DNA of 42,778 nucleotides. Origin: a virus. Lineage: Duplodnaviria > Heunggongvirae > Uroviricota > Caudoviricetes. The notes under the pieces were generated by a model. It ran no database searches. It was not told the DNA's origin and saw nothing but the letters and a program-made list of their open reading frames with translations. The DNA is taken from the IMG/VR virus record IMGVR_UViG_2541047878_000002, positions 1 through 42,778 of that record. One strand, 5' to 3'. The position numbers and the translations under genes are program-made. This document shows, in pieces, positions 31,245 to 42,778 of this stretch. How positions within the stretch are numbered: the stretch's first letter is position 1; every line of letters begins with the position of its first letter.

Positions 31245-32720
31245 ATGGCTACTTGGCAACAAGGAATCAACTCAGGCGGTTTTCTTGCTGGTATCGGTGG
31301 GCAAAACTCAAATGCGCCAAAGGCAAGTGATGTAAGTGAGGCGTTGGCCTATATTCGCCAGAACAACGAAATGGAGCGCTCAGGTCGCAATAACATCGGC
31401 CTTCAGGCGTTGCAGGGGCTTGGTAGTGTCGCTCAAACATATCAAGCCGCAAAGCAACAGGAAGTGGATGCTGCATTCCAAAAAGAATATGCGGCAGCCA
31501 TCCAGTCAGGTGATCGACAGCAGGTTCGAGATCTGATGACCAAATATCCTGGTCAATTAGAGAAGATTCAGTCTGGTATGAAGTGGGCTGACGAAGACCA
31601 GCGTGATGAAATTGGCAATCTAGCGGCAGGCGGTCAAATTGCCTCCATGATGGGTGGTGATGCATTTAGCAAGTGGATTGGAAACAATGCAACCAGATTG
31701 TCTAATCAGGGGGTAGACCCACAACAACTCCTCAGCATGTATCAAAAAGACCCACAAGCAACATCACAACTTATCGGACAATATGGTCAGTTTGCATTAG
31801 GCCATGAAAAGTATTGGGATTTACAGGACAAGATGGTTGGTCGTGAGATTGACCGAGGCAGGCTGGCAGAGACAATCCGCAGCAATCAGGCCAGCGAAGC
31901 ACTTCAGGCGAGAGGGCAGGATATTAGCCGAGCAAATGCGTTAACGTCAGCATATGCACCAACAGCCGCAATGCAGAATTACAATCAGTACGCGCAAATG
32001 TTAAAGGCGGATCCAGATGGTGCAGCGGCATTTGCGGCAGCGGCGGGAATTAATCCCAATGCTAAGAAATTACTTAAGGTTGAAACCAATCCTGATGGCT
32101 CGGTAACTAAGTATTACACCGATGGCAGCGAGGAAGCCGGAAAACTAAACCAACCTATATCTGGTGATGGCATTAAACCAATTAGTTTGCCACAAGCGCA
32201 AAGCATCATAGATAAGGCTAATGAGGGTTCCAAGAAGGCGGCGGGATTTGCTTTGCGATTAAAAGATTCAATGGACTCAATGAATCAGCTTAGTAAAAGC
32301 ATTGACCCTAAGCGAGTTGCATTAATAAATCGCTCTCTTGGTGATGGGACTATTGCAAATTTAAGCCTATCACCAGCGGAGCAGCAATATATGGTAAATG
32401 CGAGAGACGCCTTGTATGCAATTTTGCGCCCAGAAACAGGTGCAGCAATTACTCTGCCAGAGATGCAGGAGTATTCCAAAATGTACCTGCCTCAGCCCGG
32501 TGATTCCAAGGCTGCTACTGAAACAAAAATGCGAAAAATGCAGGGCCAATATAACTCATTACGTGGTCAGTCTGGTCGCGTTTATGATGCTTTGGTGGTT
32601 TCAAGTGCTGCAAATAGTCAACAACAGAGCAATAGCCAACAACCGACAAATACCCAACAGCAGCAGAGTCAATCCGGATCATATACCTCAAAATCAGGCA
32701 TTCAATTTACGGTGGAATGA
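31245..32720 (+). CDS. Ejection protein, gp20 position
   Basis: 491 aa, Gln/Ala-rich; size and order match P22 gp20. Confidence 0.7.
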
Positions 32721-34558
32721 TGAAAGTAACTGCAAACGGTAAGACATTTACCTTTCCTGATGGTACGAGCACCGAAGATATTGGCACCGCCATTGATGAG
32801 TATTTTGCTGGTCAGGCTGTTCAGCAACAAACAGTTAATCAGGCCAATAATGCACCAACACGGGAAGAACCATCATTGATGCAACAAGCTGGCGATTGGC
32901 TCACTGGTGGTCAAAGTGCAGGGCAAATTGCAGAACAGGCTGGTCGTGGTCTGGTAAACATACCATTTGACGTATTGCAGGGTGGCGCAAGTCTGATTAA
33001 TGCAATCAGTCAGGGGCTTGGTGGGCCAAAAGTTTTGGATGATGTTTATCGTCCAGTAGACAGACCGACAGACCCCTACGCTCAAGCTGGAGAAACAATT
33101 GGCGGGTATTTAGTTCCAGGAATTGGAACGGCAGGAAGCATGGCTATTGGATCACTGGCAGAGGCCGCAAATCAGAAAGGCGATTTCGCACAAAATGCAG
33201 CTAAAAATGCCGGAGTTAACCTTGCCGCTCAGGGTGTTCTTTCCGCAGCAGCAAAGGGAATAGGGCGTGGAATAACGGCTATAAAAGGTGATATTGCGCC
33301 AGAAGTGGCGAAGAAAATTGCCACTTCAGAATCGATGGGCGTGACACCAATGACATCTGATGTTATCCCGCCGAAAAATGCTTTCACTCGCGGCCTTACT
33401 CAGGATGCCGAGGGGGCTTTGCTCGGGACAGGCTCAAAGCGAGCGGAGCAATATGCAACGCGTAGTAAGCTGGTAAGCAATTATTTTGACCGTTTTGGTG
33501 AGTACAACCCTGATGATGTGGTGAAATCTCTGACCACCACGTTAAGGGGGCGGAAGGATGCTGCTGGCGCTGTTATCAATGACGTCACCAATAAAATGGG
33601 TAATGCCGCAGTTGATACCACAAATACCATGAATGCTCTGAATACAGCGATCGCAAGACAGGAACGGCTTGGGACTTCAGCCAATCAAAGCCTGCTTACA
33701 TCCTTGCGTAACCTACGTGAAGAATTAGCAAACCCTGCAACTGATTTGGATGTTACGTTTGATCTCTTGCGTCAGCACAGAACAGCATTTAGATCTAATG
33801 TTCAGGGAGATTCTATGGTCTTCCCCAACCAGGCAAAAGCAGCTACCAATATGGTAGAGAATGCAATGTCAAAAGACCTTCGTAACGCAGTTGCTAAAAA
33901 CCTCGGTGCATCAGACGCAGCAAAATACCTTAAAGCAAATTCAGATTATGCAAACGTTTATAATAAGGTGCTTAATAAAAACATTGCTAACAAGCTCAAC
34001 AAGGCAAGCAGTGAAGCCAGTCCTGAACTTATAAATACCGTTGTATTAAGCAGAAAACCATCTGACGTGAAACGAATCTGGAGCGCATTGGATGATAAAG
34101 GGAAAGATGCTATGCGTGCAGCTTACGTCAGCAAAATAGCGGAAAAGGCCGGTGATTCTCCAGCCAAGTTCATCACTGAAGTTAATAAGCTGAAATCTCA
34201 GTCAGGTGGTGAAATTTACAACACTATTTTTTCTGGAAAGCACATGAAAGAGCTTGATTCTCTTCATGAAGTTCTACAGCAAACAGCAAGGTCAGACACC
34301 GCAAATGTAGTAACTCAGACGGGGCAATCGCAAGCCAACCGGATAAGGACGATTGGCGCAACTGCGACTCTTGGCGTATCAATGGGGCTTGAGGCTGGCT
34401 TTGGTGCAATGATGCGTTTGTATGAGTCTAAAGCAGCAAGGAATGCTCTCTTACGTTTGGCAAACACCAAAGCAGGAACACCAGCCTATGAAAGAGCGCT
34501 GAATAACGCCGCAAATGCCATCAGACCAATACTTGCCAATGATGCAACTGATCGCTAA
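32717..34558 (+). CDS. Ejection protein, gp16 position
   Basis: 613 aa; size and order match P22 gp16. Confidence 0.7.
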
Positions 34559-34579
34559 GGGTTGATGTCATGGATGTTG

Positions 34580-35218
34580 TTAATTGCGAATGGAATCGCG
34601 GAACTCTTTGCTTGATAGAAAAGGATCTGTTCTCCTTAACTCATCATAGTTTTTATTAAACTTTCTTGCTTCACCTGGGTATCTGTTGAACAAAACATTG
34701 CAGAAAAAAGAGAGCAATAACTCACATATGAATGCTAATACCCTGAAAAATAAAGGTATAAAAAGAAGGGAAGGTTCATTGAAGTCTCTATTCCAAACAA
34801 AATAGACAATCATCCCGACATACCAAATTGATATCCCTATACTGATGATTGTTCCAACAGAGGTAACTACGATCCCGATTAAGTCGGACAGTCTGTTTGC
34901 CAGTAACTCATTTGAGTATCTTGCAATCATATACCGCCAACATTTTGCAATATCATCATGATCTGTAGAGTCTTCTGGAATAGCTAGGCTTCTACATATT
35001 GAAGTAGCTCTTTTTTTCTCAACTCTTTTTGAGAGCCATCCATTAAAGAGATACATCAACACCTGCGTTGCTATTCCTGCACCAAGTGATATCAAAGACA
35101 TCCCCAAAAATCGCCATCCTGGAGATAGTGACTGGTACTGCCAAACAAAAAAAATTAAAAAACCCAATGAGCCTATGACATAGGCTGATGTATCGCTATA
35201 TATATCTATTTTTTTCAT
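34580..35218 (-). CDS. AT-rich integral membrane protein (about 4 TM helices) at the P22 sieA position; candidate superinfection-exclusion or abortive-infection effector
   Basis: 212 aa from ATG 35218 with AAGGAG SD 10 nt upstream (ORF-track start is a GTG at 35251); strongly hydrophobic segments; low GC; directly downstream of the Mnt-like RHH gene on the same strand. Confidence 0.55.
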   Translation of the reverse strand: MKKIDIYSDTSAYVIGSLGFLIFFVWQYQSLSPGWRFLGMSLISLGAGIATQVLMYLFNGWLSKRVEKKRATSICRSLAIPEDSTDHDDIAKCWRYMIARYSNELLANRLSDLIGIVVTSVGTIISIGISIWYVGMIVYFVWNRDFNEPSLLFIPLFFRVLAFICELLLSFFCNVLFNRYPGEARKFNKNYDELRRTDPFLSSKEFRDSIRN

Positions 35219-35268
35219 TGAGTAGCCACTCCTTAGTTTTGAGCAGAACACCGGATGATAATGTTTTG

Positions 35269-35520
35269 TTATGTGTCTTTTGGGATTCTATCCAGTAACT
35301 CGTTGGAAATTTTATCAAGTAAAGATTTTATTTGTTTAAGATCTAATGATTTGTCTACTGATGAGACGTCAGATGATAACGCATCCTCAAGAATTTGAAC
35401 TATCTCTGAGTTCATAGATCGACCGTTTCGTTTAGCCCTTTCCGCAATAGCACTACGCATGCCGTCAGGCATTCTAACCGTAAATCTTTCTATGAAATTT
35501 GATTCGTCTTTTTCTGACAT
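35269..35520 (-). CDS. Mnt-like ribbon-helix-helix repressor (paralogue 1)
   Basis: 83 aa from ATG 35520: …RFTVRMPDGMRSAIAERAKRNGRSMNSEIVQILEDALS…, RHH core nearly identical to recalled P22 Mnt (…NGRSMNSELLQIVQDALS…); the hydrophobic N-extension of the ORF-track entry was rejected. Confidence 0.65.
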   Translation of the reverse strand: MSEKDESNFIERFTVRMPDGMRSAIAERAKRNGRSMNSEIVQILEDALSSDVSSVDKSLDLKQIKSLLDKISNELLDRIPKDT

Positions 35521-35569
35521 TTTCTTATTCGCAAGGCATATGAGCAATAAAAAACACAGTAGCATCATA

Positions 35570-35624
35570 TTGACATTATGAGCAATGGCATCATAATGGT
35601 GTCATGACATCATGGTGATGTCAT
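35570..35624 (+). promoter_or_regulatory. Divergent promoter/operator region: candidate Pant-like promoter plus 21-bp perfect palindromic operator
   Basis: -35 TTGACA 35570-35575, 16-bp spacer, -10 CATAAT 35592-35597; palindrome ATGACATCA-TGG-TGATGTCAT at 35604-35624 at the predicted transcription start. Confidence 0.5.
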
Positions 35625-35640
35625 TATGACGGAGATATTG

Positions 35641-35817
35641 ATGATGAGCGATGTTCTTTACAGTGGTCGTAAAAGTCAGAGTTTCCAGCTTCGTTTGCCA
35701 GCGCGAATGAAGGAGGAGATCAGACGCGTAGCTGAAATGGATGGAATTTCTATCAACTCTGCGATTGTGCAGCGACTGGCTAAAAGCCTGAGAGAGGAAA
35801 GAGCTAATGCCCAGTAA
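35641..35817 (+). CDS. Arc-like ribbon-helix-helix repressor
   Basis: 58 aa from ATG 35641 (GGAG SD 6 nt upstream; ORF-track start 35626): …QSFQLRLPARMKEEIRRVAEMDGISINSAIVQRLAKSL…, RHH fold as in P22 Arc. Confidence 0.6.
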   Translation: MMSDVLYSGRKSQSFQLRLPARMKEEIRRVAEMDGISINSAIVQRLAKSLREERANAQ

Positions 35818-35890
35818 AAATAGTGAAGCCCGGAAGTGCGCGAACACAAACCGGGCCTCTATGTCAGTAACCGTACTCAAGGAAACTAAC

Positions 35891-36529
35891 ATGAATATTG
35901 TAGCAAAATCAGATTATAACTTCCAAGGATTCACTTTTAACCCTGTAACAGAGGGCGGGTCTATCTGGTTTACCTCCACCGAACTAGCTAAGGCTCTCGG
36001 CTATAAAAAAACTGATGCCATCAGCCAAATTTATGCCCGTAATGCTGACGAATTTTCCGACTCAATGTCATTGACCCTCAATATGAAGGTCAACGGAATA
36101 AACAATAGCTTACGTAACAAATCGGTCAGAGTTTACTCACTCCGAGGCGCTCACTTGGTGGCGATGTTTGCTTCTACGCCCAAGGCCAAAGAGTTCCGCC
36201 GCTGGGTGCTGGATATTTTGGATCGGCAGGCAGAATGCTCACCGATTGCAAAACAGTTTACTGACGAAGAACTGGTTAATCTCTGCTACTTACAATTGTG
36301 GATGGAGAAGAGTCAACAAATGTGCAAACACATCTACCCAGGAATGAAGCAAATTGGTTCTGAGCTTTCTGGAAGGATTTACGATATTGCATATGAGACT
36401 CGCTACATGTCAGAAGAAACCAAGAAATCACTTCTTCGTGAAGTGAAGAATCTTGATACCAACAATTTTGTCGTAAAGAACGCTCAGCCAATGCTGGCAA
36501 AACTGCGCGGCGAGGAATGGATTCATTGA
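35891..36529 (+). CDS. Bro-N domain antirepressor-like protein
   Basis: 212 aa from ATG 35891 (AAGGA SD); N-terminal Bro-N-like segment …IWFTSTELAKALGY…VRVYSLRGAHLVAMFASTPKAKEFRRWVLDIL…; downstream of arc as ant is in P22. Confidence 0.6.
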   Translation: MNIVAKSDYNFQGFTFNPVTEGGSIWFTSTELAKALGYKKTDAISQIYARNADEFSDSMSLTLNMKVNGINNSLRNKSVRVYSLRGAHLVAMFASTPKAKEFRRWVLDILDRQAECSPIAKQFTDEELVNLCYLQLWMEKSQQMCKHIYPGMKQIGSELSGRIYDIAYETRYMSEETKKSLLREVKNLDTNNFVVKNAQPMLAKLRGEEWIH

Positions 36530-36617
36530 TTGGTGCGCCGGACGGCGCAAAAAGAAAACCGCCAGTGTGCTGCTGGCGGCCTATGTCACACCCTTACTAC
36601 CACATAAGGAATGCCTA

Positions 36618-37346
36618 ATGACTTTTAAGAATGTAGCAAACATCGGATCCGTTGTCACGGATAAAACCATTGACAGCCAGCGCCTGCTTGAGATGGTCAA
36701 TCATGCTCGTAGACAGTGCGGGGAAAAAGAAGTCCGCAATAACGACTTTATTGCACGCATTAAGGATGAACTTGAAGGTGAGCACTACGAAATTTTCGTA
36801 GTTCAAAAATCAAACAAGACAAGTTCTGAAAAAGTTGTTATGTCAATTAAGCAAGCCCTTCGAGTGGCTGCTCGTGAATCTAAAGCTGTTCGCCGCTCAC
36901 TGGTAGACCAACTTGAAAGTATGCAAGAAGCGCACATTAAAAGCGGTAAATCAGCGAGTGGACTTGTTGAGTATCGTCAAGCGCGAACATTGAAAATGAC
37001 GGTTGAAGCTGTTACCAATCTGTTCGATCTGATGCCAAATCTTGCGCCTGAGGCAAAGCAGACAGCGGCAGCAAGTATAATCAACCCGCTCGTTGGTTTT
37101 AATGCAATACCTCTTCCGGCAATAGAAGAGCATTACTACTCAGCAGGGGAGGTTGCAGAGCAGCTTGGAGTAACGGCCAACAAGATTGGTCGCATTGCTA
37201 ACGCAAACAACCTCAAAACTGAGCAGTACGGGAAGTTCTTCCTGGATAAATCGGCGCATTCCAGCAAACAGGTAGAGGCGTTTCGTTACAATTCTGAAGG
37301 CGTTAAAGCACTACAACACCTGCTACATGGCTCAAATGTGGCGTAA
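36618..37346 (+). CDS. Hypothetical protein, possibly a second antirepressor-type protein
   Basis: 242 aa from ATG 36618 with AAGGA SD; co-transcribed with arc-like and Bro-N genes; no confident family call. Confidence 0.45.
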   Translation: MTFKNVANIGSVVTDKTIDSQRLLEMVNHARRQCGEKEVRNNDFIARIKDELEGEHYEIFVVQKSNKTSSEKVVMSIKQALRVAARESKAVRRSLVDQLESMQEAHIKSGKSASGLVEYRQARTLKMTVEAVTNLFDLMPNLAPEAKQTAAASIINPLVGFNAIPLPAIEEHYYSAGEVAEQLGVTANKIGRIANANNLKTEQYGKFFLDKSAHSSKQVEAFRYNSEGVKALQHLLHGSNVA

Positions 37347-37364
37347 CATTTTATAATGAAAACT

Positions 37365-37390
37365 AAACCCGCTTAATCGCGGGTTTTTTC
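37365..37390. terminator. Bidirectional intrinsic terminator between convergent genes
   Basis: cccgc-ttaatc-gcggg hairpin flanked by A-run upstream and TTTTTTC downstream; overlaps the mnt paralogue-2 stop codon. Confidence 0.45.
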
Positions 37391-37630
37391 TTTCCTTAGA
37401 ATTTCAGCCGCAACTTCTTTTACTCGTTCCGAGATTAATGAGGCCAGCCTCTCTTCTTCATCACGATACCCGCTTACAGGTGATGGTTTGGAGAGTGATT
37501 CTTCCATCGTAGCCACAATTTCGGAATTGATAGACCTGTTATTCATTTTTGCACGCTGCTTAATCTTAGCGTGCAACTCGTGTGTAAGCCTCAAGTGGAA
37601 CTGCGCCTCATCGTATTTGCTGTACATCAT
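37373..37630 (-). CDS. mnt: Mnt-like repressor (paralogue 2, closest to P22 Mnt)
   Basis: 85 aa from ATG 37630: MMYSKYDEAQFHLRLTHELHAKIKQRAKMNNRSINSEIVATMEESLSKPSPVSGYRDEEERLAS… matches recalled P22 Mnt along its length; the ORF-track N-extension overlaps the tailspike and was rejected. Confidence 0.7.
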   Translation of the reverse strand: MMYSKYDEAQFHLRLTHELHAKIKQRAKMNNRSINSEIVATMEESLSKPSPVSGYRDEEERLASLISERVKEVAAEILRKEKTRD

Positions 37631-37762
37631 CAATGCCTCACCAAATGGGTGGAATGGCATCGTAAAACCTACTGTACAAATCAACAATCGTACCGTTTCG
37701 GTATGTAACAAATGCCAACCGTAGCCATGCTGCGGCGATTCCTTGTATCTGGAGCAAATTAA

Positions 37763-40468
37763 ATGACAGACATTACAGCCAATGTTGTAGTGAGCATGCC
37801 TTCGCAACTCTTCACTATGGCGCGTTCTTTTAAAGCCGTAGCTAATGGCAAAATTTATATCGGTAAAATTGACACTGACCCGGTAAATCCTGATAACCAG
37901 ATTCAGGTCTATGTTGGGAACGAAGATGGTTCTCACGTTCCTGTTGCACAGCCAATCGTCATCAATGCCGCTGGGTATCCAGTATATAACGGACAGATTG
38001 CCAAATTCGTAACCGTGCAAGGCCATTCTATGGCTGTTTACGATGCTTATGGCACTCAGCAGTTTTATTTCCCAAATGTATTAAAATACGATCCAGATCA
38101 GTTTGGCCCAGACTTCAAAGAGCAGTTATCTCAATCAGGAGCATACATTAATGATGATTCAAAAGGTGATGCATTAATTGGGGTAAGGCAGCCATTTACC
38201 GGGGCTGTAACTATAACTCAGCATGAAAACAATGCTCTTTTCTTAAATGTAAAACAATTCGGAGCAATTGGGGATGGGAAATATCATCCATTATCTGAGA
38301 GGTTTTCTTCAATTTCTGAAGCAAAATCCTTATATCCTTTTGTTGACTCATTATCTCAGTCAATAGACTGGGCCGCGTGGCAAGCTGCCCTTAACACAGG
38401 AAAGGTTATTTATGGTACTGATAATGCGTATGTAATAACGGATACGTTAACACCTGTTTCTGGTGGTGGGATAATTGGTCTTGGTGTGGGCAAATGGGTC
38501 TCCGGATATACTGCAACATTTGCTCCTGATATTACCACAGGGACCACATTCCTGATGTACGGGGTAGGAAATAAAAAATATACTGTAGATTGTGTTTCTA
38601 ATATGGATGTTAGTGGTGGTGTGGTTTCTAATCCATCTTCCGAAGACCCGTATACAACAACAGCACCTGCGTCATCATATGATTTATTGGATTTTACTAA
38701 CGGTGATGCTAATGGGACTACAAGAGCCACGCTTAAACCATTCTCTGCCGCAATATTGATGCCTGAGACAGGATGTGTTCGCCTTGAGAACTTTCGTGTT
38801 GTTCCATATTTCAATGGGCTGGATGGTTATAAAGACATTGCAAATACCGGTCTTGGCGATGAGTGGGATGTAGGTATTTGGTCACGTGCGTCTTTTGGCA
38901 ATGAATACCGCAATTTGCAGGTGGTTGGATACTGGCGCAAGACGGCACTTTTAAAAACGAACATTCCTGTATCTGGCACGCTGGCTGCTCAGGGCGAGGA
39001 TGAAAACTATTATCACTGTAGATTCCAGGGATTCAAGGGTGTTTCGATCCGCGCCAATGATGTATTCCGAATTACAGCGGTAACGTCCAGCACTATCGAA
39101 ATCCCATGGTCAGCAAGCCACACCTTCGAAACGTCCGGAGTTTTAAGATCTGGAGGCAGGAATTTCACTTATTCAGGATTATCCGTATCCGGTGATAAGT
39201 TAGTATTTACTGGAGTGTCTAACGCTTCTGAGGCAACAGTAGGTTCTACTATACGGCGAAATGACATAGATAACTTTGGTATGGCGGGAACGCAATTTTT
39301 CGATTGCTACATTACCAGCCTGTATCACCACACACATCTGCTTGCCACATCGCAATACCTGTCTCAACCATTCAGCCGACCATCAGAGTGTATGGAGGTT
39401 TCAGGGGAACCAGTTCGCGGTGTACAGGTACATGCAGGAACCATTCAGGGATGGGATGATGTTCTTATTCATCTGCATGACTGTGGAAATATGAACTTTT
39501 ACAGTACATATTTCGAAAGCCAGCAAGCATATGTAACTATAAATGGTGGTAATGCTATTGGTTATGGAGCACGTATGATAGCTTCCCGGCAATCAACAAG
39601 CTCATTACCATATGCAGCAGGGAATACACGAGTGCTTAGAATGGTCGGGTGCTCTGAAGGCAATGGCGTTGACTGGGGTCCTGTATTTAACAACTATACA
39701 GGAGGAAGATATAATTCTGGAGACGGTGTATTTAACCCCCGCGATGCATTTATAGACCATAAATCTCTTCCTGAGCAGTCAGGAGGTGAGTCAAGACTCG
39801 TATCACAAAAAGGAAATGCCAGAGTAGTATGTGGTGTTGGTAAAACTGTACTGCTTGGACCAACGTCAGGAGATTGTAATTTACAGAGTAATACCGGAAG
39901 TTTAAATATTAGAAGTGGGATAAGAGTAAGAGTCGGTCACGCTGATGGAACAGACTGGTGGTTGGCAGATGCTAATAAAATAGCTCCTGTTGATGATAAT
40001 GTTAAAGCTATTGGACAGCCATCAAACAGATGCTCTGTTATCTATGCAGGAACCGGGTCAATCAATACATCAGATGAAACTCTTAAAACAAGATATGATA
40101 TTATTAATGCAGAGCGTGATGCCGCTATTGAAATAAAGTCAGTCATCTATAAATTTAAATTTAATGACTCAATTAATCACAAAGGAATTGAGTCGTCCAG
40201 GTATCATTTTGGCGTTGGCGCTCAAACCGTAGGGGATATTCTTAGAAAGCATGGTTTAAATCCTGAGCAATATGCTTTTTGGTGTTACGATGAATGGCCT
40301 GACGTATGGGATGAAGAGGTGATAACTGAAGAGAGCACAGATCCTGATACAGGTGAGAAAATTTATTCTCAATATAAAACAGGAGATATGATTCTTGTAA
40401 AAAAAGCAGGAGGACGCTACGGAATTCGTTATGACGAATTGGCTATGTTTATATTAATGGCAATGTAG
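37763..40468 (+). CDS. Tailspike: P22 gp9-type head-binding N-domain + divergent receptor-binding domain + C-terminal intramolecular-chaperone-like domain
   Basis: 901 aa; residues ~1-115 match recalled P22 gp9 ([11 protein letters not shown]…[22 protein letters not shown]…); AT-rich distal part; C-terminus carries …NTS|[10 protein letters not shown]… (S770/D771). Confidence 0.85.
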
Positions 40469-40486
40469 TTGCAATAAATGCAGTAT

Positions 40487-40516
40487 ATCCCGCATAAAAA
40501 TGCGGGATTGTTTTTA
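40487..40516 (+). terminator. Intrinsic terminator after the tailspike
   Basis: atcccgca-taaaaa-tgcgggat hairpin followed by TGTTTTTA. Confidence 0.55.
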
Positions 40517-40775
40517 TCTGGTGTATTTATGAATTTTAAGTAAATTTTAGTATTGATTACTGCATCGCAGTTAAAGCCTCATTACCTATGAGGCAAAACT
40601 GAGACACACAAGGCTTTGCACTGGATTGCAAGGCTTTGTGCTATCTGAGATATAGCAATGTTGGTTGCTCCACCTTTTCATCAAGCCAGTCCGCCCACCA
40701 CTGCATCATTTCTCTGCGCTTATCGAGATACTGAGCATGGTTGTAAATTCAACTAACCCAGTGAGTTGACAAAAA

Positions 40776-40812
40776 ATTAGCGCAAGAAGAAAAAAAATCA
40801 CCTTGCGCTAAT
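40776..40812. promoter_or_regulatory. sib/tI-like hairpin of the lambda b-region (int retroregulator), separated from int in the prophage
   Basis: perfect 11-bp inverted repeat attagcgcaag…cttgcgctaat with 15-nt A-rich loop, ~150 bp left of the att core, matching recalled lambda sib-region sequence. Confidence 0.45.
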
Positions 40813-40957
40813 GCTCTGTTACAGGTCACTAATACCATCTAAGTAGTTGATTCATAGTGACTGCACATGCTGTGTTTTGCAGTATTATGTAGTCTATTAT
40901 TTAGACCAAAACCATCATAACACATTGATATTGATGATTTTTCTTGTTTCTCATTCA

Positions 40958-40972
40958 GCTTTTTTATACTAA
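40958..40972. repeat. attR core (GCTTTTTTATACTAA) preceded by lambda-like P arm
   Basis: identical to attL core; upstream 40815-40957 matches the recalled lambda P arm (tctgttacaggtcactaataccatctaagtagttgattcatagtgactgca…); downstream acttgagcg is the host B' arm. Confidence 0.9.
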
Positions 40973-41062
40973 CTTGAGCGAAACGGGAAGGTAAAAAGAC
41001 AAAAAGTTGTTTTTAATACCTTTAAGTGATACCAGATGGCATTGCGCCATCTGGCAGAGTGA

Positions 41063-41539
41063 TTAACTAAACATCGCAGTAATCGAGGCACTCGCCAGAG
41101 AGTGAAAATGAACGTTAAACCCGACCATCGCGCCGCTGGCACCTTCATCGACATCAATACGTTCTACATCCAGCGCGTGAACGGTAAAAATGTAGCGATG
41201 GGTTTCGCCTTTCGGCGGCGCTGCGCCATCGTACCCGGTTTTACCAAAGTCGGTACGCGTCTGCAAAACGCCGTCTGGCATAGCTACCAGACCAGAGCCA
41301 AACCCTTGCGGTAATACGCGGGTATCAGCGGGTAAATTAACAACTACCCAGTGCCACCAGCCGGAGCCGGTTGGCGCATCCGGGTCATAGCAGGTGACAA
41401 CAAAACTTTTCGTTCCCACAGGAACATCATCCCACGCCAGATGCGGTGAAATATTATCGCCATCGTAACCCATGCCGTTAAAGACATGACGATGCGGCAG
41501 CTTATCGCCATCGCGCAGATCGTTACTGATGAGTTTCAT
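41063..41539 (-). CDS. ybhB: YbhB, PEBP/RKIP-family protein (host gene flanking attB)
   Basis: 158 aa MKLISNDLRDGDKLPHRHVF… PEBP-like; right of attR as in E. coli. Confidence 0.85.
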   Translation of the reverse strand: MKLISNDLRDGDKLPHRHVFNGMGYDGDNISPHLAWDDVPVGTKSFVVTCYDPDAPTGSGWWHWVVVNLPADTRVLPQGFGSGLVAMPDGVLQTRTDFGKTGYDGAAPPKGETHRYIFTVHALDVERIDVDEGASGAMVGFNVHFHSLASASITAMFS

Positions 41540-41647: not shown

Positions 41648-42778
41648 ATGAAACGCGCATATAAATACCGGTTTTACCCGACAACTGAGCAGGCTGAGCT
41701 TTTAGCTCAGACGTTTGGCTGTGTGCGCTTCGTCTACAATTCCATCCTTCGTTGGCGTACCGATGCGTACTACGAGCGAAAAGAAAAGATCGGTTATCTA
41801 CAGGCCAACGCTCGCCTTACGGCGCTCAAAAAAGAGCCTGAATACATATGGCTGAATGATGTTTCCTGCGTTCCCCTCCAGCAGTCGTTGCGCCACCAAC
41901 AAGCCGCCTTTGCTAACTTCTTTGCCGGACGAGCTGCATATCCGGCTTTCAAAAGCAAACGGCACAAACAGGTGGCTGAGTTCACTGCCAGCGCGTTTAA
42001 ACACCGTGACGGCGAGTTGTATATAGCAAAGAGCAAGTCGCCGCTGGATGTTCGCTGGAGTCGAGAATTACCATCTGCGCCGTCAACCGTTACCATTTCC
42101 AGAGATAGCGCTGGCAGGTACTTTGTTTCCTGCCTGTGTGAGTTTGAACCTGTATCAATGCCTGTTACCGCTAAAACGGTCGGCATTGATGTGGGCTTAA
42201 AAGATTTATTCGTCACCGATACCGGATTCAAAACCGACAATCCCCGCCACACCGCTAAATATGCGAAGCGATTAACGCTGCTACAGCGACGTTTAAGCAG
42301 GAAGCAAAAAGGCTCAAGAAACCGTATTAAAGCCCGCTTAAAGGTCGCCCGACTCCACGCGAAAATCGCCGATTGCCGGATGGACAATCTGCACAAGTTG
42401 TCCCGCAAACTGATTAACGAAAACCAAGTTGTTTGCGTCGAATCCCTCAAGGTGAAAAACATGATCCGCAACCCGAAGCTGTCTAAAGCAATAGCTGACG
42501 CAGGCTGGAGCGAACTTGTTCGCCAGCTCCAGTACAAAGGCAAATGGGCCGGGCGGTCAGTGGTCGCCATTGACCAGTATTTACCGTCCTCAAAATGCTG
42601 TAGTTGCTGCGGTTTCACCATGCAAAAAATGCCTCTTAATGTTCGTAAATGGCACTGCCCTGAATGCGGCGCAGACCATGATCGCGACATTAACGCGGCA
42701 CGTAATATTAAAGCTGCCGGGCTGGCAGTGTTAGCCCACGGAGAGCCTGTAAACCCTGAATCGCAGCACGCGGCTTAG
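41648..42778 (+). CDS. tnpB: TnpB (IS200/IS605-family OrfB, RNA-guided endonuclease family), intact
   Basis: 376 aa with RuvC-I GIDVGL, RuvC-II VCVESLKVKNM, RuvC-III HDRDINAARNI and zinc finger CCSCCG…CPECG; stop codon is the last triplet of the window. Confidence 0.85.
   Translation: MKRAYKYRFYPTTEQAELLAQTFGCVRFVYNSILRWRTDAYYERKEKIGYLQANARLTALKKEPEYIWLNDVSCVPLQQSLRHQQAAFANFFAGRAAYPAFKSKRHKQVAEFTASAFKHRDGELYIAKSKSPLDVRWSRELPSAPSTVTISRDSAGRYFVSCLCEFEPVSMPVTAKTVGIDVGLKDLFVTDTGFKTDNPRHTAKYAKRLTLLQRRLSRKQKGSRNRIKARLKVARLHAKIADCRMDNLHKLSRKLINENQVVCVESLKVKNMIRNPKLSKAIADAGWSELVRQLQYKGKWAGRSVVAIDQYLPSSKCCSCCGFTMQKMPLNVRKWHCPECGADHDRDINAARNIKAAGLAVLAHGEPVNPESQHAA

Follow-up and report, generated by a model that had tools for sequence, protein, structure and literature searches.

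A type B sieA gene next to an Arc-family repressor gene in the immI region of a P22-like prophage of Escherichia coli

Two co-oriented minus-strand genes, one for a small ribbon-helix-helix (RHH) protein and one for a polytopic membrane protein, lie between an ejection-protein gene and an arc/ant switch in a prophage of Escherichia coli. Which protein does the second gene encode, and do the two genes form a single regulator-effector unit or are they simply neighbours? The DNA analysed (hereafter 'the window') is the whole stretch of 42,778 nucleotides of IMG/VR record IMGVR_UViG_2541047878_000002. An earlier examination of the sequence (the original prediction) regarded the two genes as a putative, horizontally acquired cassette for superinfection exclusion or abortive infection.

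A complete P22-like prophage makes up the window; its insertion site in the E. coli chromosome is flanked by ybhC (1-1284, pectinesterase family) and ybhB (41063-41539, PEBP family). The prophage carries a lambda-type integrase gene (1419-2489), and its virion genes are approximately 95% identical to those of Escherichia Lederbergvirus-type phages. The tailspike gene (37763-40468, plus strand) specifies a protein of 901 aa with the P22 head-binding domain at its N-terminus and an endosialidase-chaperone domain (Peptidase_S74) at its C-terminus. Just outside the prophage, adjoining ybhB, is an IS605-family tnpB (OrfB_IS605 and Cas12f1-like TNB; 41648-42778, plus strand), which runs past the window end.

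Both open reading frames, at 34580-35218 (membrane protein) and 35269-35520 (RHH protein, here called RHH1), are present and co-oriented on the minus strand as originally described. Their location was also confirmed. On one side is a homologue of gene 16, encoding the ejection or DNA-transfer protein (32717-34558, plus strand; phrog_770 DNA transfer protein, E 1.3e-279), which is convergent with the membrane-protein gene; on the other are plus-strand genes for an Arc-like protein and antirepressors. The GC content of the two genes (0.365 and 0.361, respectively, compared with 0.473 for the whole window) bears out the AT-richness that had been noted. Together they span 941 bp with a GC content of 0.367, in the lowest 0.4% of equal-sized windows, and this is the most AT-rich stretch bar the tailspike 3' end. 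The sole other region as AT-rich is that at 39500-41200 (GC approximately 0.36), which includes the 3' part of the tailspike gene and the prophage end. P22 sieA is itself AT-rich (GC 0.337), which is consistent with low GC being a property that goes with sieA genes.

Identity of the membrane protein

The gene at 34580-35218 (ATG at 35218, preceded by a ribosome-binding site AAGGAG at 35234-35229) encodes a protein of 212 aa that, by homology, is SieA of sequence type B. It is identical at 210 of 212 residues (99%) to ECHS_RS01600 (212 aa), the SieA of prophage HS1 of E. coli HS, whose gene (EcHS_A0321) is the type B example of Leavitt et al. (mBio 2024; PMC10883804). The two differences, L62I and H87Q, both fall in variable alignment columns. 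Length and orientation are the same, as are the 48-bp leader and the slot, which in HS1 also lies between the gene-16 and gene-9 homologues. The HS1 locus differs upstream of sieA, where it has a 213-aa HTH-domain gene in place of the Arc-family RHH gene of the window.

Homology to P22 SieA itself (type A) is more distant: 28% identity over 148 aa by BLASTP (E 2e-24). P22 SieA was also matched in a tblastn search with the window protein against 38 P22-group phage records. In addition, the protein matches phrog_7745 'superinfection exclusion SieA-like' (E 1.8e-20), and a newer Pfam release has a precomputed PF26849 SIEA assignment for the cluster of a 99% identical protein. The similarity to P22 SieA covers the three shared transmembrane (TM) helices and a family motif, FxRYPxEAxxFNK, described as a conserved cytoplasmic motif of SieA (PMC10883804). 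In the window protein this motif is found near the C-terminus, at residues 177-189, as FNRYPGEARKFNK. Nine of its positions are invariant in an alignment of types A and B (F177, R179, Y180, P181, E183, A184, F187, N188 and K189).

Type B proteins are longer than type A at the N-terminus by about 30 aa, which add one TM segment (PMC10883804). The window protein has such an extension: the alignment with P22 SieA begins at residue 44, leaving approximately 43 extra N-terminal residues, which include an added TM helix, together with approximately 20 extra residues at the C-terminus. Its gene also occupies the sieA slot of P22, between the gene-16 and gene-9 homologues and opposite to the late operon. 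The original prediction had been unable to recognise the protein as SieA. Homology to both P22 SieA and a characterised protein is, on the contrary, what was found, and that statement no longer stands; judged by its sequence the protein is already known, as a 99% identical allele of a characterised type B SieA. The suggestion that it acts in superinfection exclusion fares better: this P22-like prophage has a sieA gene in the sieA position.

Several searches missed this assignment. The local Pfam copy returned only sub-threshold noise for the membrane protein (7tm_7, DUF3918 and EI24) because it evidently does not include PF26849; the empty Pfam result is thus misleading. PADLOC produced zero matches, and PADLOC 2.0 includes no model for SieA type B. 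A megablast search of the region against a phage collection gave no match covering sieA or RHH1, and this sieA allele is known from prophages only. In a profile search of 1.84 billion representatives, 176 clusters were found at E <= 0.001, most of them 165-175 aa long, the type A length.

Hydropathy analysis shows three clear peaks. A fourth hydrophobic stretch (residues 12-28), close to the N-terminus, is below the 19-residue threshold of the hydropathy script but is modelled by AlphaFold (pLDDT 75.5) as a helix at 6-25; the other membrane-length helices of the model are at 33-78, 105-143 and 149-177. Type B SieA has been predicted with TMHMM to contain four TM segments (PMC10883804). The three lines of evidence are consistent with four TM helices and agree with the number first proposed for this protein. 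By the positive-inside rule, the basic loops at 59-112 and 170-212 are predicted to be cytoplasmic, as are both the N and C termini. When the AlphaFold model was compared with the PDB using Foldseek, the best match was no better than E 2.2. The fold is therefore without a relative of solved structure and the model adds no mechanism.

RHH1 and the arc/ant control region

RHH1 is an Arc-family RHH repressor of 83 aa (35269-35520, minus strand). Its best match is PF03869 Arc (E 1.4e-17), in agreement with the original call of an RHH regulator, and there are secondary matches to FitA-like (E 4e-08) and HicB (E 0.008) families. The N-terminal Arc-type RHH DNA-binding domain resembles that of P22 Mnt (55% identity), but the similarity is limited to 38 aa of this domain and nothing past residue 49 can be aligned. 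P22 Mnt has a C-terminal tetramerisation domain, PF11423, which is readily detected in Mnt of P22 (E 1.6e-20) and of Salmonella (E 1e-14). RHH1 does not have this domain and gives no match to PF11423 even at a cut-off of E 10. On these comparisons RHH1 sits at the Mnt position but is not an Mnt orthologue.

In two genomes, PGAP calls the RHH1 gene a pseudogene fragment ('missing C-terminus'; E. coli UTAK-1, L003 4969-5121, and L004 3100-3252). We rejected the possibility of a truncated gene: full-length homologues (81-83 aa, 60-79% identity) occur widely in Salmonella, Citrobacter and Hafnia, and the flag is probably an annotation artefact. In the loci examined, homologues with 61-72% identity are found in long-tailed prophages, always divergent from a 53-57 aa Arc-like protein and a Bro-N antirepressor. 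The full-length homologue with 72% identity, for example, lies opposite Arc and Bro-N in Salmonella long-tailed prophages.

The same divergent arrangement is present in the window. The gene for the Arc-like protein (57 aa; 35644-35817, plus strand; PF03869, E 1.1e-11; 42% identical to P22 Arc over 43 aa) is taken from the PGAP start in the UTAK-1 annotation, although an earlier in-frame ATG occurs at 35626. It is separated from RHH1 by 105 bp containing a control region (35564-35625) with face-to-face promoter-like sites and two adjacent palindromes. The plus-strand site, TTGACA-16-CATAAT (35570-35597), is near consensus; that on the minus strand, ATGCCA-16-TATGAT (35591-35564), is weaker and overlaps it. 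These promoter calls are consensus matches and, as such, are no commoner than in shuffled sequence (8 found compared with 6.9 expected). The palindromes are both 21 bp in length and are predicted operators. One (35585-35605) has two mismatches and the other (35604-35624) is perfect, ATGACATCA-TGG-TGATGTCAT; two such sites were found compared with none expected in 100 shuffles.

This layout matches that of P22 Pant/Pmnt with Oarc and Omnt: an RHH gene is divergent from an Arc-like and an antirepressor gene, the face-to-face promoters overlap, and there is one operator between the -35 and -10 (Oarc in P22) and a second just downstream of the -10 (Omnt). RHH1 is therefore read as a Mnt-analogous repressor. 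It would do the job of P22 Mnt as maintenance repressor of the divergent arc/ant1/ant2 operon, and would bind the two palindromes that overlap the predicted ant promoter. Differences from P22 also exist. Oarc and Omnt are unrelated in P22, whereas the operators predicted here share half-sites; the window has two tandem antirepressors, and at the opposite end of the operon lies a further gene that resembles mnt more closely.

The two antirepressor-family genes, which differ from each other, lie in tandem behind the one Arc-like gene. Antirepressor 1 (35891-36529, plus strand; start as annotated in UTAK-1) has Bro-N (PF02498) and P22AR C-terminal (PF10548) domains and matches phrog_245 Ant (E 2.6e-63). 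The second gene (36618-37346, plus strand) matches phrog_1726 (E 2e-100). Between the arc-like stop (35817) and the start of ant1 (35891) we also noted a possible Sar-like antisense RNA (35818-35940). Minus-strand promoter-like sites are located just inside ant1 (TTAAAA-16-TATAAT, 35940 to 35913; TTGGAA-18-TACAAT, 35926 to 35897), and a GCCCGG/CCGGGC hairpin (approximately 35830-35858) is followed by a T-run on the minus strand. The position of this candidate mirrors that of P22 Psar/sar; it has no match to an Rfam family.

The closest relative of P22 Mnt in the window is not RHH1 but a 95-aa protein, Mnt2, encoded at 37373-37660 on the minus strand. The similarity of Mnt2 to P22 Mnt (45% over 73 aa) takes in the C-terminal region, and Mnt2 can be aligned with the Mnt proteins that precede type B sieA in Salmonella, Yersinia and Serratia. 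Its gene is back-to-back with that of the tailspike and converges on the ant operon, where the terminator scan identified a bidirectional terminator-like hairpin (37365-37386). The only Rfam matches in 34300-38000 are two sub-threshold sRNA matches at this hairpin. No palindrome was found in the region upstream of Mnt2 (37661-37762). Of the resemblance to P22 sieA-mnt pointed out originally, the sieA slot and an RHH gene at the Mnt position are there, but the true Mnt-like gene is Mnt2. In comparison with the Salmonella, Yersinia and Serratia genomes, it looks as if an RHH-arc-ant1-ant2 module was inserted between sieA and mnt, stranding the Mnt orthologue beside the tailspike, and the switch may be composite, RHH1 and Mnt2 both being RHH repressors of the maintenance type.

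Linkage and transcription of sieA and RHH1

We regard it as highly probable that the locus consists of a type B sieA and, separately, of RHH1 as maintenance repressor of arc/ant1/ant2, with sieA probably expressed at least partly by read-through. The main competing explanation is that of the original prediction, in which the genes for RHH1 and the membrane protein would have been acquired horizontally as a single unit, RHH1 repressing or autoregulating an operon that includes the exclusion gene. This is compatible with the co-orientation of the genes, with the 50 bp and no terminator between them, and with their equally low GC content (0.36). Their distribution points in the other direction. 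Among 5426 complete E. coli genomes, type B sieA occurs in 21 and RHH1 with its control region in 24. The genes are adjacent in 13 records, but type B sieA occurs without RHH1 in 8 and RHH1 without type B sieA in 11. In the loci examined, sieA is never found downstream of the RHH1 homologues of other prophages.

Type B sieA has four different upstream neighbours in E. coli: in the window type this is RHH1; HS1 has a 213-aa HTH protein at this place and H22 a LexA-family protein; in EC31 and Z1322HEC0003 the neighbour is a divergent P63C gene, and no upstream gene is co-oriented. In an alignment of five upstream contexts, the loci are homologous over only 35-48 bp before the sieA ATG. For the window, homology with other type B sieA loci stops at approximately 35264, just past the RHH1 stop codon. 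It follows from the reassortment, the differing neighbours and this break in homology that, as far as sequence comparison can tell, type B sieA and RHH1 are two juxtaposed mosaic modules and not one acquired unit. The slot can also be occupied differently. In E. coli AR_0058 an unrelated 122-aa gene (L004 2565-2933, minus strand) is found in the sieA position after an identical RHH gene; its product has no match in Pfam or PADLOC, and the gene may be a different kind of cargo or another exclusion gene.

Regulation by RHH1 fares no better than common acquisition. The sole operators found overlap the divergent ant promoter, with none in front of sieA, and cloned HS1 sieA, which had just 106 bp of different upstream sequence and no RHH gene with it, is functional. 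RHH1 is neither required for SieA function nor a dedicated SieA regulator. The proposed cassette can thus be upheld neither as an evolutionary nor as a regulatory unit, and we consider it improbable. Two observations temper this view. The conserved sieA leader (35-48 bp) is short for it to be certain that it includes a complete promoter. In addition, a true mnt directly precedes type B sieA in three other genera, with a gap of 4 bp in Salmonella, an overlap in Yersinia and a gap of 42 bp in Serratia, even where, as in the Yersinia and Serratia loci, arc/ant is absent. The ancestral unit may therefore have been an operon of repressor and sieA, which counts against treating RHH1 and sieA as separate modules.

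These loci have further individual features. In P22-like prophages of Yersinia pseudotuberculosis (L012 3266-4181) and Serratia fonticola (L015 3207-4145), mnt and type B sieA form a pair flanked directly by the tailspike gene and gene 16, and in Serratia there is an Omnt-like palindrome, AAGACCACAGTGGTCTT, upstream of mnt. The Salmonella enterica locus has a canonical P22 immI region with verbatim Omnt and Oarc (L008 3150-3510). Its mnt stop codon is 4 nt before the ATG of type B sieA, and the P22 orf59a, terminator and PsieA are absent, implying an mnt-sieA operon.

In the second alternative, the two genes would be a toxin-antitoxin or abortive-infection pair. Some type II toxin-antitoxin systems have a small RHH gene before one for a small membrane protein, and the secondary matches of RHH1 are to antitoxin-type families (FitA-like, E 4e-08; HicB, E 0.008), so that RHH1 could be imagined as the antitoxin to a toxin that damages membranes and kills infected cells. 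We rejected this reading, which is extremely improbable, and the abortive-infection option that had been raised is without support: the best match of RHH1 is Arc and its gene lies in a canonical immI control region; the putative toxin is SieA, and type B sieA occurs without any RHH partner; PADLOC gives no match; and growth is affected little or not at all by P22 sieA alone in the chromosome, SieA stopping DNA entry without killing the cell (PMC10883804). Lack of toxicity of the protein by itself, with infected cells surviving and no phage DNA entering, is already reported for SieA of both HS1 and P22.

How, then, is the type B sieA of the window transcribed? In P22, orf59a lies between mnt and sieA, as do a terminator and a promoter, PsieA, both annotated. 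In the window there is simply the 50-bp spacer that forms the sieA leader (35219-35268, minus strand), with a -10-like CATTAT at 35263-35258. This spacer contains no terminator-like site and its predicted RNA structure is not unusual (z = 0.16). Scans for promoters upstream of sieA identified a site with 9 of 12 matches inside RHH1 in the window (35338-35309) and another in HS1 (9 of 12, TTGATA-17-CATTAT), which uses the shared CATTAT; neither is above shuffle expectation. No site was found in EC31.

Read-through from the RHH1 promoter is probable, at least in part, because the sieA start is no more than 50 bp from the RHH1 stop and no terminator intervenes. Co-transcription of sieA with an upstream, lysogen-expressed RHH1 gene is plausible given the lack of a terminator, the lack of a convincing sieA promoter in any of the contexts, and the mnt-sieA arrangement in Salmonella, Yersinia and Serratia. 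A broader proposal, which we offer tentatively and regard as possible rather than probable, is that type B sieA is essentially a promoter-less plug-in. In nearly all cases it would lie, in the same orientation, immediately downstream of whichever immI maintenance repressor the lysogen expresses (Mnt in the latter three, RHH1 in the window, the HTH protein in HS1 and the LexA-family protein in H22). Transcription of the exclusion gene would then follow the state of the antirepressor switch, which in this prophage would be a composite of RHH1 and Mnt2.

Proposed function and implications

The function of the window SieA is carried over from experiments with P22 SieA and with the 99% identical SieA of HS1. 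When HS1 sieA was cloned in Salmonella with 106 bp of upstream DNA, it conferred full exclusion of phages P22, L, MG40, MG178 and LP7 (PMC10883804). E-protein hybrid phages were likewise excluded, and an HK620 hybrid escapes partially (PMC10883804). P22 SieA, of type A, shares this exclusion phenotype; it is located in the inner membrane, it blocks DNA injection and K+ release, and mutations that escape it map to the C-terminal parts of gp16 and gp20 (PMC10883804). By analogy, the window protein would reside in the inner membrane as a small protein of four helices; produced by the lysogen, it would block DNA injection by superinfecting P22-like phages. Its most likely target would be the conduit formed by the ejection proteins gp16 and gp20, with which it would interfere at the inner membrane.

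The locus is thus ordinary: a known sieA beside the probable repressor of a switch of a well-understood type. Nevertheless, in RefSeq the window-type SieA still goes under 'hypothetical protein' in every one of the 21 complete E. coli genomes in which it occurs. The comparison of modules leaves one small, testable point, namely whether type B sieA has its own promoter or is read through from the upstream repressor gene. The label 'sieA type B' predicts that the lysogen would be resistant to P22-like phages, which is relevant to phage typing or therapy that uses podoviruses of this group.
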